Shown here: positions 1 through 24,334 of the stretch, piece after piece
Layout of the letters: each line of letters starts with the position of its first letter
Numbering within the stretch: position 1 is the first letter of the stretch
Source: Deltaproteobacteria bacterium
GTDB lineage: Bacteria; Myxococcota_A; UBA9160; UBA6930
NCBI GenBank assembly: GCA_031401135.1
Contig: JANNRF010000394.1
Location: 1-56,972, forward strand
Direction: 5' to 3'
Length of the DNA stretch: 56,972 nt
Notes under the pieces: model-generated
The model's database searches: none
What the model was told of the DNA's origin: nothing
Seen by the model: only the letters and a program-made list of their open reading frames with translations
Made by a program: the position numbers and the translations under genes

Positions 1-35
1 CATTAGTTCGTGTGAGGGATCCCCGCACAAGGCAA

Positions 36-193
36 GCGGATGGGGTCGGGGGCCGGCGGCGCTGAGGTAAAAGCGCAGGAGCGGCCCAACGCAATGAACC
101 GCCTTCAGCGAGTGCGCGCACGCCAGGGAACGCCACATCCATCCAAAGGCCGCTCCGAGCCACGAAGCGCCGCCGGCCTCCGGCCCCGTCCGC
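36..193 (+). repeat. Nested palindromic element, copy 1 (structured repeat or ncRNA candidate)
   Basis: 28-nt arms 36-63 and 166-193 pair fully (3 G-U wobbles on + strand RNA). Inner stem GGAGCGGCC (78-86) / GGCCGCTCC (148-156). Internal-loop strands GAGGTAAAAGCGCA and GAGCCACGA recur in the element at 23144-23279. Confidence 0.75.
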
Positions 194-197
194 GCTG

Positions 198-2915
198 CTA
201 CGACGCGCTCGGCACCGCCTCTTCCGCCGGCGCTGCCCCAGCCGCCGGCACCGGCTCTTCTTTCTTCTTCTCCACCGGAGGAGGCGACAGCACCTGCCCA
301 ATCGCCTTCAAGCTCCCAAACACGAAGTTCGGCACTCCTTCGAGCAACAACGTCGCCGGCCCCGACGCCACCGACTTCGCCAGAAGCGGCTGCACGTTCG
401 GCTTCGCCCAGATTCCAGTCACCGAGAAGTAGAACCCCGCCAGCGCCTGATCCTCGCCGAGCAGCAGCACGTTGAAGATCGGAATGTGCGCGACGATCGT
501 GTCGAGGGTCGGAATCGGGTACATGCCGATCACGCTTTCGAGTTCGTACGGCTCCGCGAGGTGCGTCTTGCCCGAGGCTGCCATGCGCTCGGACCGGCCC
601 TCGAGCGTGAGCGTGCGCGAAGTCATCCAGCCGTTCTCGATCGGACCTTCGAGATCGATCGCGCGATACGGGAAGCGGTCGCGCTTGCCGAATGGATCGA
701 TCTTCTCGTCAGTCAGCGCGAGCGCCAGCAGGAACGGGACGTCGCGATAGATCTCGCCTTTGCGCGCGTGCAGACTCGCGTAGCCGTGCACATCGACGAG
801 CGGGCTCTTGCCGAGCTGGAGCGTGCCGCTGGCGGTCGCGGCGCCGACGAGCAGCCCCGACATCACGGGCCTCGGCATCTGCGAGGTGGTCCAGACATCG
901 AGCAGTTCGAGGCCGCGGCTCTGGGCCTCGACCGCGAACGGAATCGGGCCGTCGCCGCCGAGCTCGAGCACGAGCTTGCCTTCGAGTTCGCCACTCGGCG
1001 CGAGTCGCAGCTTCGTCTTCAGCAACTCGACGCGCGCGCCCAGCACGCGGAAGCCGCCGTCATAACTCTTGGTGAGGAAGCGCCCCATCGAGCTGACGTC
1101 GAGCGCGAAGCGGCCCTCGGCCCAGATCGCGGGGTCGGCAGCGGGCGCGGCCTGCGCGCGCCGCTCGCCCAGCGCGAGTTCCACCGAGATCGAGCCGCCA
1201 TCGCGCAGCGGCTGGCCGTCTTTGCCGCGGCCTTTGCGATACGAGGCGTTGCCCTCGATCCCGAACGTCGCCCAGGTGCCGCTCTCGACCGTGTAGTCGT
1301 AACCGTTGTCGGCGCGCTGGATTTCGGCGGTCACGTCTTCGAGCGTGCAAAACAGGAGCGGGTGCGAGAGCCGATCGAGATCGAGGTTGAGCGCGCTCCA
1401 GGTGGGCACGTAGGGTGGTTTGCGGCGCGATTCGACCCAGGCGCGCAGATCGTCGATGGCGGCGAGCGGCGGCACCGGCGGCGGGCGTTCGCAGCGCACG
1501 TCTTCGAGTGAGTGCACGTGCGAGAGGCCGCTGAGCTTTAGCGCGAGGCGCGGCAAGCGGCGTTCGCGGTAGCTCGCGCCGACGGCGTGCACCTCGAGCG
1601 TGTCGCCTGAGAACTCGAGCGTGCCGGCGACGTCGCGCAGCTGATCGGCTTCGCCGAGGCGCAGCTCCGCTTCTTCGAGGCTCAGCTTCACGCGGAGATC
1701 GCCGGCGCGCGCGAGCAGCCCGCCGCGCGCGATCTCGCGCGCACCCGCGACGCTGCTCGTGAGCTTCAGTTCGAGGCTGCGGATCTGCCCGCTGACGATG
1801 CGCTCGAGCGCGCGTTCGAGATCTGGCCGCACGCCTCTCGGCAGCTGCGCCGCGATGCGTTCGAGCTCGGGGCGGCCGATGCCGCGCGTCGCGAGTTCGG
1901 CGCGTAGCGCGCTGGCGTCGGCGAACGGCAAGCCCAACGCGAGCGTGCCGCTCACCGCCAGCGCGCCGTCTGCCACAGAGAGCTCCGTCGCGCGCAGTTC
2001 GCCCGGGCTCGCTTCGAGCGCGAGCGAGATCTTCGGCGCGCGTAGATCGAGCGTGAAGCTGCGCTTCGGGTCGGGCGTCGCGACCGTGCCCGCGATGCCG
2101 CGCCCCTCGACCACGGCGCGCAGCTCGTGCGCCGCGCCCGCGGCGGAGCGCCAGCTCAATTCGCCGTGTAGCTCGCCCGCGAGTTCGGGCGCTTGTTCGA
2201 ACGCCGCGAGCAGCGCGTCCACCTGCGTTGATTTCAGCGCGAGCTTCGCCTCGACCTCATCGTCCGCGACCGCGAGCGTGAGTTCGAAGGGCGCCGAAGC
2301 CTCGGCGCCAAGCACGCCGCGGCCGCTCGCCTCCCAATTCCCGTCCCCTGAGAGCCGCGCGCAGCGGAACGTGAGCGTGTCGAGTTCGAGCACGCGGCGC
2401 GGGGCGGCGGCGCTCGTGAACGAAACCGAGAGACGTTCGGCATCGAGCGGCGGAATCGGGCAAGGGCGCGCGCGCAGCTGGTCTGCGGCTTTCGAGAGCG
2501 CCGCGACCGCGCGCGAGAGCGGCTCCTCCGCGTTCGGCGCAGCTTGCTCCGCCCCCGGCTCGGGCATCGCGAACTCGATCCCTGAGAACTGGAGCGCGCG
2601 CAGCTCGAGCCGGCCGAGCATCAACAAGAACGGATCGACGCGTGCGCTCACCTGTTCGATCGCGAGCGAGGCGCCGCCGGGCAGCGGGTCGGCCCGCATG
2701 TCGCGCGCTTCGAGGTGAAGCCACGGCAGATCCTCGGTGAGGCTGACTCGCACATCGCCGAGCCGGACCGGCGCCTTCAGCAGCGCCGAGAGACGCGCCT
2801 CCGCCTCGGTGCGAAGCCGTTCAGGCGCGAGCCGCGAGGCGGCGTAGAAGCCGCCGAGCGCTGCGGCTCCAAAGACGCACACGGCGACCAGAAAGACCAA
2901 GATGGCGCGACGCAA
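198..2915 (-). CDS. AsmA-like / YhdP-like intermembrane bridge protein
   Basis: 905-aa ORF with an N-terminal TM anchor, long beta-rich body and an AsmA_2-type C-terminus (PIPTLDTIVAHIPIFNVLLLG...YFSVTGIWAKPNV). TTG start is uncertain. Confidence 0.7.
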   Translation of the reverse strand: MRRAILVFLVAVCVFGAAALGGFYAASRLAPERLRTEAEARLSALLKAPVRLGDVRVSLTEDLPWLHLEARDMRADPLPGGASLAIEQVSARVDPFLLMLGRLELRALQFSGIEFAMPEPGAEQAAPNAEEPLSRAVAALSKAADQLRARPCPIPPLDAERLSVSFTSAAAPRRVLELDTLTFRCARLSGDGNWEASGRGVLGAEASAPFELTLAVADDEVEAKLALKSTQVDALLAAFEQAPELAGELHGELSWRSAAGAAHELRAVVEGRGIAGTVATPDPKRSFTLDLRAPKISLALEASPGELRATELSVADGALAVSGTLALGLPFADASALRAELATRGIGRPELERIAAQLPRGVRPDLERALERIVSGQIRSLELKLTSSVAGAREIARGGLLARAGDLRVKLSLEEAELRLGEADQLRDVAGTLEFSGDTLEVHAVGASYRERRLPRLALKLSGLSHVHSLEDVRCERPPPVPPLAAIDDLRAWVESRRKPPYVPTWSALNLDLDRLSHPLLFCTLEDVTAEIQRADNGYDYTVESGTWATFGIEGNASYRKGRGKDGQPLRDGGSISVELALGERRAQAAPAADPAIWAEGRFALDVSSMGRFLTKSYDGGFRVLGARVELLKTKLRLAPSGELEGKLVLELGGDGPIPFAVEAQSRGLELLDVWTTSQMPRPVMSGLLVGAATASGTLQLGKSPLVDVHGYASLHARKGEIYRDVPFLLALALTDEKIDPFGKRDRFPYRAIDLEGPIENGWMTSRTLTLEGRSERMAASGKTHLAEPYELESVIGMYPIPTLDTIVAHIPIFNVLLLGEDQALAGFYFSVTGIWAKPNVQPLLAKSVASGPATLLLEGVPNFVFGSLKAIGQVLSPPPVEKKKEEPVPAAGAAPAEEAVPSAS

Positions 2916-3258
2916 ATGGCCCCCAGAAGCGAGCGCACCTTAGCCGCCTCGCTGCGGGAGACGGCTCTCAGTGCGCGGGATATTCGCGCCCGGTAGCGCG
3001 CCGAGGGCCACCAAAACTTTGGGTCCTCGAAGCGGCGGCTAGCTGGCGAAAGCGCCCGCTCTGCACACGGAAAGCGCATTGCGGGAGGTATTCCGGAAGT
3101 CCGCCAAGCGCCGATTCCTGCTCAAGAAATTCCGCCTCGCTTCCGAAATCACCAGTCAGCCAAGTGCTGGCCTCGCGATGAGGCCAGTGAGAGCGAGCCA
3201 CGCCTGCGCCCAACGGGACCGGCGCTGAGCGTGAGTTCGCAACGGCACGGAGAACACT

Positions 3259-3555
3259 GTGGAAGCGGAACCCCAGAACGAGAGCGACTTCCAGCCGAAT
3301 CGCGTGCGCGAGATTCGCGAGAACCGCCTGATGACTCAGGCGCAGCTCGCGCGCAAGGCGAAGGTGGCGCTGCGGACGATCCACAGTGTCGAGAAGGGCA
3401 TGAACTGCCGCATGGACACCAAGCGCAAGATTCTGCTCGCGCTCGGCATGCGTTTCGAAGACAAAGAGTTCGTGTTTCCCTCGCTGCTTCGGCGCGGGCT
3501 CGAGAATCTCCCGCCGATGCCGAGTGAAGGCGGGAGCTCGCCGCTCTCGCACTGA
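3259..3555 (+). CDS. XRE-family helix-turn-helix transcriptional regulator
   Basis: NRVREIRENRLMTQAQLARKAKVALRTIHSVEKG is an HTH_3 pattern; GGAG upstream of the GTG. Confidence 0.85.
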   Translation: MEAEPQNESDFQPNRVREIRENRLMTQAQLARKAKVALRTIHSVEKGMNCRMDTKRKILLALGMRFEDKEFVFPSLLRRGLENLPPMPSEGGSSPLSH

Positions 3556-3576
3556 GCGAACGCGCGTTCTGAATAA

Positions 3577-3610
3577 GAAGGGCTGGGGAAATCCCCGGCC
3601 CTTCGTGTTT
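3577..3610 (+). terminator. Rho-independent terminator candidate
   Basis: GAAGGGCTGGGG-AAAT-CCCCGGCCCTTC hairpin followed by GTGTTT, just after the XRE stop codon. Confidence 0.65.
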
Positions 3611-3744
3611 CTGGGTGCGCGTTCGACCGCGCGCGCCGAGTTCCGCGCGCCCCGACTCGAGCGTCGTGAAACTAAACGTCGCTCGGCGCGCATTCACCAA
3701 AGCCCGGGCCTACCATCGCGCAGCGTCGTCGCGAGGGAGCCGCC

Positions 3745-22297: not shown

Positions 22298-23119
22298 ATG
22301 GCGCGCGGCGGCGAAGAACAGATCGAGATTTTCCTGCTCTCGGATGGCACCGGCGAGACCGGGACGCATGCCGTGCGCGCCGCCGCCACGCAGTTTCAGC
22401 GCCGCTTCCGCCTGCGCACCTTTGCCGAGACGCGCCACGATTCTCAGGCGCGGCGCATTATGGAACGCGCCAAAGAGGCCGGCGCGCTGGTGGTGTTCAC
22501 GCTGGTGAACGACCGGCTCAAGGACAGCGTGCGCACGATGGCGGTCGAGATGGGCGTGCCTGTGGTCGATTTGTTGAGCCCGCTGATCTCCGCGATGTCG
22601 CACCACTACGCACTCTCGCCCCAACACCTGGTCGGCGTGCTGCACGGTTTCGGCGACGAGTACTTTCGGCGCGTCGAGGCGGTGGAGTTCGCGGTGCGCC
22701 ACGACGACGGCGCGAACCTGCACACGCTGCATCAAGCGGACATCGTGCTCGCTGGCGTTTCGCGCACTTCGAAGACGCCCCTCTCGATGTATCTCGCGCA
22801 GCGCGGCTACAAGACGGGCAACGTGCCGATCGTGCCGGGCATCGAGCCGCCGCGCGAGCTGCTCGAAGTGGACGCGCGCAAAGTAATTGGGCTCGTGATC
22901 GAGCCGAATCCACTGCTCGAGATTCGGCGCGCGCGGATTCGGCAACTGCAGGCGTCGCCGTACATCACGTACGCGGATCCGGAAGCGATCGTGGAGGAGT
23001 TGCAGCGCGCGCGGCGCCTGTTCAATTCGCGGCAGTGGCGGACTGTGAATACGACGGGCAAAGCCATAGAAGAGAATGCCGCGCGAATTCTGGAGTTGAT
23101 GTACGGGAGTGCGGCGTGA
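22298..23119 (+). CDS. ppsR: Pyruvate, water/phosphate dikinase regulatory kinase-pyrophosphorylase (DUF299)
   Basis: SDGTGET, YFRRVEAVEFAVRHDDG and GVSRTSKTPLSMYLA. Confidence 0.93.
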   Translation: MARGGEEQIEIFLLSDGTGETGTHAVRAAATQFQRRFRLRTFAETRHDSQARRIMERAKEAGALVVFTLVNDRLKDSVRTMAVEMGVPVVDLLSPLISAMSHHYALSPQHLVGVLHGFGDEYFRRVEAVEFAVRHDDGANLHTLHQADIVLAGVSRTSKTPLSMYLAQRGYKTGNVPIVPGIEPPRELLEVDARKVIGLVIEPNPLLEIRRARIRQLQASPYITYADPEAIVEELQRARRLFNSRQWRTVNTTGKAIEENAARILELMYGSAA

Positions 23120-23143
23120 GCGAGGCCCTCGCTGCGGCGCTGC

Positions 23144-23279
23144 GCGCGCGGGCGCGCCCGCTCTGCTCCATGGCTCGCGCGTCTGCCTGGGTGTTACTGG
23201 GCTCGGAGTCCCAAAGCCCATCGGTTTAGCGGCTACGCCTGCTGCGCTTTACTTCCGCTCCGCGGGCCCGCCCGCGCGC
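23144..23279 (-). repeat. Nested palindromic element, copy 2
   Basis: 18-nt arms 23144-23161 and 23262-23279 (1 mismatch). The minus strand carries GCGGAAGTAAAGCGCAG and CGAGCCATGGAGC, matching copy 1 GCTGAGGTAAAAGCGCAG and CGAGCCACGAAGC. Apical hairpin at 23198-23220. Confidence 0.7.
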
Positions 23280-23350
23280 TTCGCTCTTCGGTGTCGGTGC
23301 GGCGTTGCACTCGGCGTCGGCGTTCGGTGTGGGGGAGGGGGAGAGAAGAA

Positions 23351-24334
23351 GTGACGAGTCGGCCTTACGTGTTTGCCACCCGCGAGTTGCCCGGCGCGCC
23401 TTGGGAGTTGGTGCGGGCGGTCGCGGAGCTTCGCGTTTGGGAGGGTGAAGATGCGCCGCCGCGGGGGGTGTTGCTCGCTGAGGCCGGGCGGGCGGAGGGG
23501 TTGATCGTCGCGTTCGTGGATCGTGTCGATGCGGAGTTGTTGGGTGCGGCGCCGCGGTTGCGGGTGGTTTCGACTTGTTCGGTGGGAGTGGATCACGTCG
23601 ATCTCGCGGCGGCTTCGGCGCGCGGAATTGCGGTCGGGCATACGCCGGGGGTGCTGACGGAGGCGACGGCGGATTTGGCGTTTGCGTTGTTGTTGGCGGC
23701 GGCGCGAAGGATTCCGGAGGCGGATCGCTTCGTGCGCGCCGAACGCTGGTTGAAGGCCTGGGAGCCGAGCTTGTTGTTGGGGAAGGAGCTGGCAGGAGCG
23801 ACGCTTGGTGTCGTTGGGCTCGGCGCGATTGGTGAGGCGGTGGCGCGACGGGCGCAGGGGTTTGGGATGCGTGTGCTGGGCTGGACACGAAGCGGGCGCG
23901 GGGCGCCAGGTGTTACGGCCGTGGGCGATCTCGGCGAGCTGCTCGCTGCGGCGGATTTCGTGAGCGTGCACGTTGCGCGCACGCCGCAGACGCTCGGGCT
24001 GCTCGGCGCGCGCGAAATCGCGAGCATGAAACGCGGCGCGATTCTGGTGAACACCGCGCGCGGCGGCATCGTGGATGAGGAAGCAGTGTGCGCCGCGCTC
24101 GCGAGCGGGCAGTTGAGTGCTGCGGCGTTCGACGTGTTCGAGACGGAGCCGCTGCCCGCTTCGAGCCCGCTGCTCGCGGCGCCGAACCTTGTGCTCGCGC
24201 CACACCTCGGCAGCGCGACGTACGCGACGCGCGCGCGCATGTCGGAGCTGTGCGTGAAGAATCTGCTGGCGGGGCTGCGCGGCGAGAAAATGCCGCGCTG
24301 CGCGAACACCGAGCAGCTCGCAGCGCGAGCCTGA
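23351..24334 (+). CDS. D-isomer-specific 2-hydroxyacid dehydrogenase (glyoxylate reductase / D-glycerate dehydrogenase-like)
   Basis: SVGVDHVD, TPGVLTEATADL, GLGAIG, VNTARG, DVFETEP and PHLGSAT. Confidence 0.93.
   Translation: MTSRPYVFATRELPGAPWELVRAVAELRVWEGEDAPPRGVLLAEAGRAEGLIVAFVDRVDAELLGAAPRLRVVSTCSVGVDHVDLAAASARGIAVGHTPGVLTEATADLAFALLLAAARRIPEADRFVRAERWLKAWEPSLLLGKELAGATLGVVGLGAIGEAVARRAQGFGMRVLGWTRSGRGAPGVTAVGDLGELLAAADFVSVHVARTPQTLGLLGAREIASMKRGAILVNTARGGIVDEEAVCAALASGQLSAAAFDVFETEPLPASSPLLAAPNLVLAPHLGSATYATRARMSELCVKNLLAGLRGEKMPRCANTEQLAARA

Follow-up and report, generated by a model that had tools for sequence, protein, structure and literature searches.

Interspersed hairpin repeats with a conserved asymmetric core in an uncultured branch of the Myxococcota

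The hairpins and their surroundings

The stretch of DNA analysed here (the window) is the whole of contig JANNRF010000394.1, 56,972 nucleotides long, from a draft genome labelled Deltaproteobacteria bacterium (GCA_031401135.1; GTDB lineage Bacteria; Myxococcota_A; UBA9160; UBA6930). This genome, called G000 below, comprises 4.83 Mb in 516 contigs at 68.6% GC. The window carries two copies of a hairpin repeat, the element of this report: copy 1 stands near the start of the contig, convergent with a YhdP-like gene, and copy 2 lies some 23 kb further on, between genes for a PpsR-like kinase/pyrophosphorylase and a 2-hydroxyacid dehydrogenase (Table 1). A first-pass annotation, made from the sequence alone, had described nested hairpins at both places, and there we found and folded them.

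The arms of copy 1 form 28 consecutive pairs, and a base-by-base check bore out the remark that its only three non-Watson–Crick pairs are wobbles on the + strand (U.G, U.G and G.U). Its minimum free energy (MFE) is -107.5 kcal/mol (z = -6.6), with none of 200 shuffles as good; copy 2 is less perfect, at -79.4 kcal/mol (z = -2.4), with three of 200 shuffles as good. The near-identical loop strands read as they had been quoted, GAGGTAAAAGCGCAG / CGAGCCACGA in copy 1 and GAAGTAAAGCGCAG / CGAGCCATGGA in copy 2, and the observation that the two hairpins share a loop and not their stems proved true of the whole family. The motif pair AAAGCGCAG N60-90 CGAGCCAYG occurs twice in the window and in none of 100 dinucleotide shuffles, which disposes of a chance co-occurrence of the loop motifs. 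Chance hairpins as such are ruled out by the fold z-scores, by these shuffles and by the covariation described below.

The apex of copy 1 has the pattern ..CCCAACGCAATG..CTTCA..CCAAAGG in common with other sub-type-1 copies, and the orthologue of its YhdP-like neighbour in another metagenome-assembled genome (MAG) has the element at the same position. We also note that the end of contig C299 (G000:C299:7306-7480) matches window positions 1-80, which take in the 5' arm of copy 1, at 89% identity and beyond them runs on into a core of sub-type 2; either this copy is recombinant or the assembly broke there, at the repeat.

Table 1. Coordinates of the features discussed; positions refer to the window unless another sequence is named
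Feature	Position	Strand	Basis or remark
Copy 1, whole hairpin element (module B), sub-type 1	34..197	+	R1 covariance model, 132 bits, E 2.6e-18
Copy 1, 5' flank (linker), part of the repeat unit	1..33	+	Contig begins here; 89% identity to flank of the C299-end copy
Copy 1, G-rich 5' arm of outer stem	36..63	+	Pairs with 166-193
Copy 1, 5' core GAGGTAAAAGCGCAG, 15 nt	64..78	+	Invariant columns T, AA, C, A in family alignment
Copy 1, 8-bp inner stem (79-86 with 148-155) and 61-nt apex (87-147)	79..155	+	MFE structure
Copy 1, 3' core CGAGCCACGA, 10 nt	156..165	+	GAG.CA invariant in 31 G000 copies
Copy 1, C-rich 3' arm	166..193	+	Pairs with 36-63
Copy 2, whole hairpin element, sub-type 2	23136..23285	-	R1, 79.7 bits, E 8.4e-10
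Copy 2, 5' arm	23256..23279	-	Fold; outer ~13 bp kept in G000, G003, G004, G007
Copy 2, 5' core GAAGTAAAGCGCAG	23242..23255	-	Sequence and family alignment
Copy 2, 3' core CGAGCCATGGA	23167..23177	-	Sequence and family alignment
Copy 2, 3' arm	23142..23166	-	Sequence and fold
YhdP-like gene, 905 aa, convergent with copy 1	198..2915	-	ORF list; Pfam YhdP, E 1.8e-13; stop CTA 198-200, 1 nt from copy 1 3' end
PpsR-like kinase/pyrophosphorylase gene	22298..23119	+	Pfam; stop TGA 23117-23119, 17 nt from copy 2 3' end
Spacer with Shine-Dalgarno-like GGGGGAGGGGGAG (23331-23343) and GTG start (23351) of next + gene (2-hydroxyacid dehydrogenase)	23286..23353	+	Sequence, Pfam
selB with in-frame element	L171 (G152): gene 2159-3688, element 3204-3301		~33 residues added between domain III and winged-helix domains
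GGGGACGTTCC...GGAACGTCCCC repeat	L055 (G000:C157) ~333-398, same locus in G003; L093 (G002:C6:435287-435396)

Anatomy, conserved core and covariation

All elements follow one plan: an outer stem of 17-32 bp whose sequence is free, an asymmetric purine-rich core, a short inner stem, and an apex of 9 to ~100 nt that differs between sub-types. The core has the consensus 5' GARRUMAAAGCGSAG opposite 3' SGAGCCAY-(GA). Its two strands, GARRTMAAAGCGSAG and SGAGCCAY, are not complementary; they are held by the short helices RU/AY and GC/GC, set between G.A-type mismatches and an A-rich bulge. The internal loop of the first-pass annotation is thus conserved, as had been said, but is itself partly paired, RU/AY covarying and GC/GC being essentially invariant.

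In a plain MAFFT alignment of 31 copies from G000 (alignment A2), 96.3% of the cells in paired columns hold standard pairs, compared with 65.8% after shuffling. Double changes are seen in 27 of the 31 pairs and in 21 of the 23 that belong to the outer stem, and the covariation score is 0.693 against 0.170 for shuffles, with none of 500 shuffles as high and slid controls at 0.07-0.15. A cross-genome set of 37 matches at 28 loci, each from a different genome and aligned by fitting to the model, is 97.6% paired and scores 0.814 against 0.178. Within the core, pair R36:Y143 is GC in 11, AU in 11 and GU in nine copies of A2, beside an invariant U:A, and across genomes it is AU in 17, GU in 15, GC in four and nothing else. 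One of the GC/GC pairs never varies in A2 and the other is GC in 27 of 31 copies; being essentially invariant, they are neither supported nor contradicted by covariation.

The core is conserved over ~25 positions among genomes of ~36% to 69% GC, individual elements reaching 80% GC, and every helix covaries. Two MAGs labelled Deltaproteobacteria (G151 and G152, of ~36-38% GC as suggested by their names) carry the same core almost letter for letter, and G152 has minimal copies of 97 nt in which the apex is reduced to CCCCUUCAAGGG (apices of 9-12 nt). The apex is dispensable, being 9 nt long in the smallest copies, and the near-identity of the core beside such minimal apices indicates that it is the core, not the arms or the apex, that is kept. 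A start codon with a Shine-Dalgarno sequence, which GGAG...CCAUG might suggest, was rejected because the AUG is not conserved (ACG and AUU stand there in other sub-types). Consensus K-turn, loop E and UAA/GAN motifs were compared with the core by hand; none fitted cleanly and none is claimed.

The mismatches in the helices are strongly biased towards one strand. Read on the strand that the first-pass annotation had named, G.T outnumbers A.C by 35 to 2 in the cross-genome alignment A3 and by 22 to 2 in the low-GC set (57 to 4 combined), and the pairs of the G000 copies include 22 GU or UG against four AC or CA. The unpaired parts of this strand are A-rich. The excess of G.U over A.C shows that this is the strand under structural selection. 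Tolerance of G.U together with the near absence of A.C, and the A-rich unpaired parts, are also what a multicopy functional structured RNA would display: a cis-acting or small RNA with a protein-binding or self-cleaving loop and the stem as a clamp, its multiplication being secondary. The retention of the core, with covarying helices, over so wide a range of base composition fits such an RNA, as do the minimal copies, which consist of stem, core and a small hairpin.

Size and breadth of the family

The further copies that might be expected of the mobile repeat or noncoding RNA proposed in the first-pass annotation are present. G000 has 16 exact matches to the 5' motif and 33 copies by iterated nhmmer, and a covariance model built from 31 of its copies (R1) gives 44 matches at E <= 0.01, which amount to ~41 places and three opposite-strand echoes (best 150 of 7961 candidates scored). 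They are dispersed across at least 37 contigs. Many lie less than 300 nt from a contig end, which indicates that short-read assemblies of these MAGs are broken by the repeat and makes the count for G000 a floor. The complete genome G031 has 14 listed copies and at least 15 in all; a full copy in it (L232, 1268-1392, - strand) was overlooked by the genome-wide model search (best 150 of 7105 candidates scored), and per-genome counts are therefore lower bounds. Homology between copies stops ~100-130 nt 5' and 10-30 nt 3' of the hairpin and never extends into genes.

Of 151 genomes sampled from the order, 67 have matches to R1; all eight of the genus are among them and nine of the 12 families are represented, with 0 to at least 19 matches per genome (at most 19 candidates scored in each). 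A phylum-wide sample searched with strict filters and the high-GC model gave matches in 13 of 24 genomes of this order (G000 included) and in none of 127 others. Matching public contigs are titled as MAGs of Myxococcota, Myxococcales or Deltaproteobacteria bacterium, and the sequencing runs that contain the window are freshwater-sediment metagenomes. In G151, an incomplete MAG of 1.7 Mb, two core patterns gave 43 and 55 matches compared with 1 and 0 for the reversed controls. One 21-nt degenerate core pattern had no exact match among viral contigs.

The first-pass annotation had been unable to assign a named family, and we can assign none either. No Rfam 15 family reaches its gathering threshold anywhere in the window, and seven copies from three genomes gave only sub-threshold hits to microRNA-precursor hairpins (13-25 bits against cut-offs of 53-168). 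No description of the element was found in the open-access texts searched, a body that excludes supplementary files; the single text matching a core string has a title on an unrelated Klebsiella gene. The hairpin repeat family is previously undescribed.

Variation at orthologous sites

Copy number among related genomes ranges from none to dozens and the apex sub-types are genome-specific; the family multiplies inside genomes and is subject to turnover both there and from one genome to another. Such a range of copy number speaks against a functional RNA as the primary nature of the element. Empty or differently filled orthologous sites, which the first-pass annotation had envisaged, were found at two loci. 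At that of copy 2 the element is present in G001, G003, G004, G007 and G008. The ~245 nt between the genes in G000 correspond to 6 nt in G006, where the genes overlap and the spacer 23286..23353 is missing along with copy 2. The filling in G005 is diverged, and in G002 the same spacer is occupied by another palindromic repeat, the one with the termini GGGGACGTTCC...GGAACGTCCCC. A population variant, seen in a DNA contig of sequencing run X3, lacks 23153-23402 and has 10 other letters between 23152 and 23403. At the second locus G000 and G003 carry the element and G001 and G008 do not, and the upstream hairpin that accompanies it is itself an insertion or deletion.

Six congeners compared at the copy-2 site represent three to four sub-types, with the arms always fully compensated. 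The outer ~13 bp are common to four of the six (G000, G003, G004 and G007); the copies differ in the inner part of the arms, in the pairs next to the core and in the apex. Such a mixture of fully compensated sub-types at one site argues for re-insertion or conversion rather than slow drift in place, and the alignments point to re-insertion at this site or conversion from other copies as the probable source of the variation.

Among the copies examined there is a single intragenic case, all others being intergenic. The selB gene of G152 contains this copy in frame, between the regions for the beta-barrel domain, which ends at residue 341, and the winged helix, which begins at residue 459. The core contains stop codons (TAA, TGA) in two of its three sense frames and selB uses the open one; a copy that is translated is again difficult to reconcile with a functional RNA.

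Genomic placement and orientation

Both hairpins of the window lie just past a stop codon, as had been reported, but the stops belong to genes on the strand opposite the folded one, and this arrangement is general. For 37 copies in G000, the gene within 150 nt of the 3' end of the element lies on the opposite strand with its stop codon facing the element in 27 and on the same strand in two (eight could not be scored), the distance between stop and element being 1-119 nt with a median of 24. For 40 copies in other genomes of the order the corresponding figures are 25 and 3, and, summed over the high-GC order, 52 of the 57 copies that could be scored have their 3' end turned towards the stop of a convergent gene. 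On the 5' side the same 40 copies adjoin the end of a co-oriented gene in 20 cases vs 6. Taken together, these counts place most copies between convergent genes, hugging one of the two stops. Copies between tandem genes are antisense rather than sense by 12 to 3 in G000 and by ~7 to 4 in other genomes, and several take up the whole of an intercistronic spacer only 3-25 nt from a gene on either side. Of the close pairs, 12 are head-to-head, one has both copies in the same direction and none is tail-to-tail; in at least two of the pairs (L223/L234 and L232) a terminator-like hairpin, seen by eye and, for L232 only, by the scan as well, lies between the copies. Along the complete G031 chromosome + and - copies interleave, which is no more than a hint against replication-strand bias. 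In G151 and G152 the orientation is mostly sense, by roughly 8-11 to 3 among 15 copies with rough open reading frame (ORF) calls. An apparent preference for TAG stops beside the element in G000 (13 of 27, against a G000 background of 29%; p = 0.054) was dropped, as other genomes have no excess (14/24 vs 49/81).

The 5' flank is rich in A; in G000 it has 4.1 A per 12 nt against 0.45 T. Eight of 33 G000 copies and five of 40 others (13/73) have AAA there, whereas TTT follows the sense hairpin in 0/73. From this A-richness it follows that the transcript of the neighbouring gene has a U- or pyrimidine-rich tail after the hairpin. The reverse complement might accordingly be the working form: within the adjacent mRNA it could act as a terminator or exonuclease block in a 3' untranslated region (UTR) or intercistronic spacer, as reported for repeats of the REP, ERIC and SPRITE types, and the family would then be a portable terminator or stabiliser. 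The tight placement after the stop of the gene on that strand agrees with this, as does the tail; the reverse complement of the 5' core, CGCUUUACUU, was picked up as terminator-like, the accompanying module A (described below) folds better on that strand and has some U-tracts there, and the MFE of the reverse complement is the lower in 25 of the 31 G000 copies. A plain hairpin, however, needs no invariant asymmetric core across lineages. On that strand the wobbles become A.C mismatches, so that both alignments point the wrong way; U-tracts are short or absent in most copies, some copies lie within operons, where a terminator would be polar, and in the low-GC MAGs the orientation is mostly reversed. 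We consider this explanation improbable.

The polarity also recalls the attC sites of integrons, in which, as in the element, the folded bottom strand is antisense to the preceding gene and starts just past its stop, and a site of this or another tyrosine recombinase would share the succession of stem, unpaired spacers and variable terminal structure. The copies, however, stand singly or head-to-head beside conserved housekeeping genes and form no cassette arrays, the flanking genes are syntenic across species, no conserved AAC...GTT boxes appear at the stem base in any alignment, and the conserved part is internal and sequence-specific. A hairpin of the attC kind is in our view very improbable indeed.

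Placement bears on the functional RNA from both sides. In the low-GC MAGs most copies are sense, upstream of or between co-oriented genes, and the avoidance of sense copies within the operons of G000 would suit an RNA that cuts or marks the transcript containing it. On the other hand, no conserved promoter is apparent: by eye the flanks of the 14 listed G031 copies are unrelated save for short motifs abutting the stem, and no sigma-70-like site was predicted around two copies. The very short intercistronic spacers filled by several copies are unfavourable too, and in the high-GC genomes the sense strand is antisense to the nearest gene and shielded from the upstream one by terminator-like hairpins. 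The metatranscriptome X20 was available as contigs only, which cover a small share of the window; a single contig, from a relative, covers 22949-23162, thus reaching only the edge of the element, and then diverges, showing neither strand nor transcript ends. That the element is first of all a functional RNA appears to us possible but doubtful.

Neighbouring repeat modules

The element is often joined to a second hairpin module (module A) and to another palindromic repeat. Of 33 G000 copies, 20 (those in G000:C294, C77 and C157 among them) have module A at a distance of 35-75 nt on the 5' side of the hairpin, and it is also present in L149 and L209 of G151. It is a covarying hairpin with the loop TCAAC/TCGAT/TCAAA, followed by CCCTCCC(A)AT or CACTCCCTACT, and its tail motif recurs in the low-GC MAG. 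Its mismatches favour the strand opposite to that of the element (G.U 7 vs A.C 2 when read that way), and because of this and of the U-tract found there in some copies the sequence of module A looks like that of a terminator for the neighbouring gene. By inspection no consistent frame was seen that would make it a small ORF.

Two further repeats were noted in passing. The GGGGACGTTCC...GGAACGTCCCC family, ~65-110 nt long with conserved termini, has the classical design of a miniature inverted-repeat transposable element (MITE). In L209 (G151:C19; 800-830 and 5740-5775) some low-GC apices contain TGTCATTCTGAGCAACGCGAAGAAT-like inverted pieces, which we take to be another repeat widespread in environmental genomes.

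Interpretation and search for a partner

In our view the observations are best explained by strand-specific hairpin repeats of the REP/RPE/BIME kind whose core is recognised by a factor and is probably the handle of a small mobile element, a reading that we hold to be about evenly balanced between right and wrong. A putative trans-acting factor would recognise the folded single strand, as single-stranded DNA or RNA, at the core whose conservation suggests it, and would copy or move the element. The long stem would serve only to present the core and might be kept perfect both by selection on the intermediate and by conversion from copy to copy. The survivors in the high-GC order are almost only those with the 3' end against the stop of a convergent gene, which are therefore read as the reverse complement in a 3' UTR or intercistronic spacer; a hairpin with a pyrimidine-rich tail would probably do little harm there, or might act as a terminator or stabiliser. 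Sense-transcribed copies would be selected against in this order.

The obvious partners were sought without success. The first-pass annotation had envisaged a linked HUH gene. G000 has four Y1_Tnp (PF01797) ORFs with no R1 match nearby beyond generic hairpins, and PF01797 has no match in the complete G031, with its at least 15 copies, or in the incomplete MAG G151. A RAYT partner is ruled out, as none of the Y1_Tnp ORFs of G000 is flanked by the element, one of them being flanked by a different palindrome, and two carriers have no such ORF. In L098 (G000:C371) the same 43-nt perfect palindrome stands at 1316-1358 and 2245-2281, on both sides of a Y1_Tnp (RAYT-like) ORF, a textbook REP-RAYT arrangement unrelated to the element. 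The reverse transcriptase (RT) domain PF00078 (RVT_1) has no match in any of five element-bearing genomes, the complete G031 among them, and the flanking genes are housekeeping genes; a retron noncoding RNA with its multicopy single-stranded DNA, or another RT-dependent element, was rejected on these grounds. A cut-and-paste MITE was rejected because the termini vary, no copy with a coding insert was found and no target duplication was seen, though it would take a recent insertion to exclude such a duplication. There is no direct repeat at the stem ends, and the short conserved flanks (for example CGAGGA | GGCGCC) are not duplications. A loose scan for 5' cores lacking 3' cores gave mostly random matches and a few broken copies, and a 1-kb gene between two doublets in G009 looks, by reading of its sequence, like a housekeeping gene of the glutathione-transferase type.

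Several points weigh against a mobile element. No enzyme was identified for the element, and neither the motif scan, nor the core-pattern maps (those of G151 and G152 were inspected), nor the intervals between copies disclosed a copy with a coding insert or an autonomous parent. A 5-kb candidate in G151 proved to be an ordinary four-gene operon between two unrelated unpaired half copies, and a 4.9-kb interval between a - and a + copy in G031 contains genes for shikimate dehydrogenase, a UDG-family protein and an AhpC/cytochrome protein. None of the empty sites seen is a precise one with a target duplication; they are whole-spacer differences between species that are ~77-85% identical. Variation is greatest at the termini of the element, where a transposase of the cut-and-paste type would attach. 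A functional RNA, too, would be expected to show strand-specific purifying selection on every copy and A-rich loops on that strand. The MFE favours the opposite, G/U-rich strand, which we read as an effect of composition, and in the low-GC MAGs the orientation is mostly the other one. The main tension, and the main point unexplained, lies in the strands: the neighbouring gene usually transcribes the one that is not under structural selection, since in most high-GC copies the folded strand is antisense to that gene; a mobile element accounts for this only by an extra assumption.

A bolder view makes the core an active centre or recognition site, either of a new self-cleaving or protein-recruiting RNA that spreads selfishly or of a substrate of transposition without a Y1 HUH enzyme or RT. 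We regard it as decidedly improbable, a little more so than a portable terminator; were either form true, the avoidance of sense transcription beside high-GC genes would reflect core activity.

Comparison with known systems

Hairpin repeats scattered through genomes are common, REP, ERIC, RPE and Correia elements being examples, and for most of them the way they move and what they do are open questions. The present family is informative in this respect, as it has an asymmetric core of ~25 nt, a strand that can be read from wobble pairs, and carriers from which two obvious enzyme classes are absent. The core offers a defined bait for a partner protein or an RNA activity in a poorly known, uncultured branch of the Myxococcota, and the element, which occupies 3' UTRs and operon spacers, may influence transcription termination and the stability of mRNA there.

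Small self-cleaving ribozymes and the multicopy RNAs of Rfam resemble the element in having conserved internal-loop nucleotides between covarying helices, many copies and a wide range of base composition; they differ in that no Rfam family reaches threshold and no activity is known for the element. An attC site is a hairpin just past the stop codon of a gene, with the folded strand antisense to that gene, a conserved structure and a variable terminal part. The element, for which no intI gene was searched, differs from it in having neither arrays nor an R-box consensus at the stem base.

REPs and REPINs are likewise extragenic hairpin repeats present in tens of copies, vertically persistent and often at gene ends. 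They are presumably recognised as a folded single strand, and inverted doublets are common among them, as among the close pairs of the element (12 of 13 head-to-head). According to two accounts, a REPIN consists of two inverted copies of one REP and the conserved sequence is the stem itself (PMC3116915, PMC3337134); in the element the arms are free and it is the asymmetric internal loop, with its non-complementary strands, that is conserved. It differs further from REP-RAYT systems in that G031 and G151 lack Y1_Tnp and the RAYT genes of G000 carry another palindrome. RPEs are described as palindromic repeats of ~100-150 bp without a known transposase, mostly within Rickettsia ORFs (PMC10969869). 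They share with the element the palindromic structure and in-frame insertion into protein genes (one case here, selB), whereas the element is almost always intergenic and occurs in MAGs labelled Myxococcota; this comparison is by description. The resemblance to RPEs noted in the first-pass annotation has in selB one concrete parallel. The same source describes clustering of palindromic and MITE-type elements (PMC10969869), which the joining of the element to module A and another palindrome recalls. With the BIME and BOX-RUP-SPRITE repeats (PMC10969869) the element shares its modular joining with module A and the GGGGACGTTCC...GGAACGTCCCC repeat, its location after genes and its terminator-like features on one strand; unlike them it has a core conserved across the order and beyond, and covariation that is strand-specific. 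As an interspersed palindromic repeat the element is of a kind already known; none of the kinds compared here shares its design, in which free arms enclose a core that is internal, asymmetric and invariant, and Y1 and RT partners are lacking.

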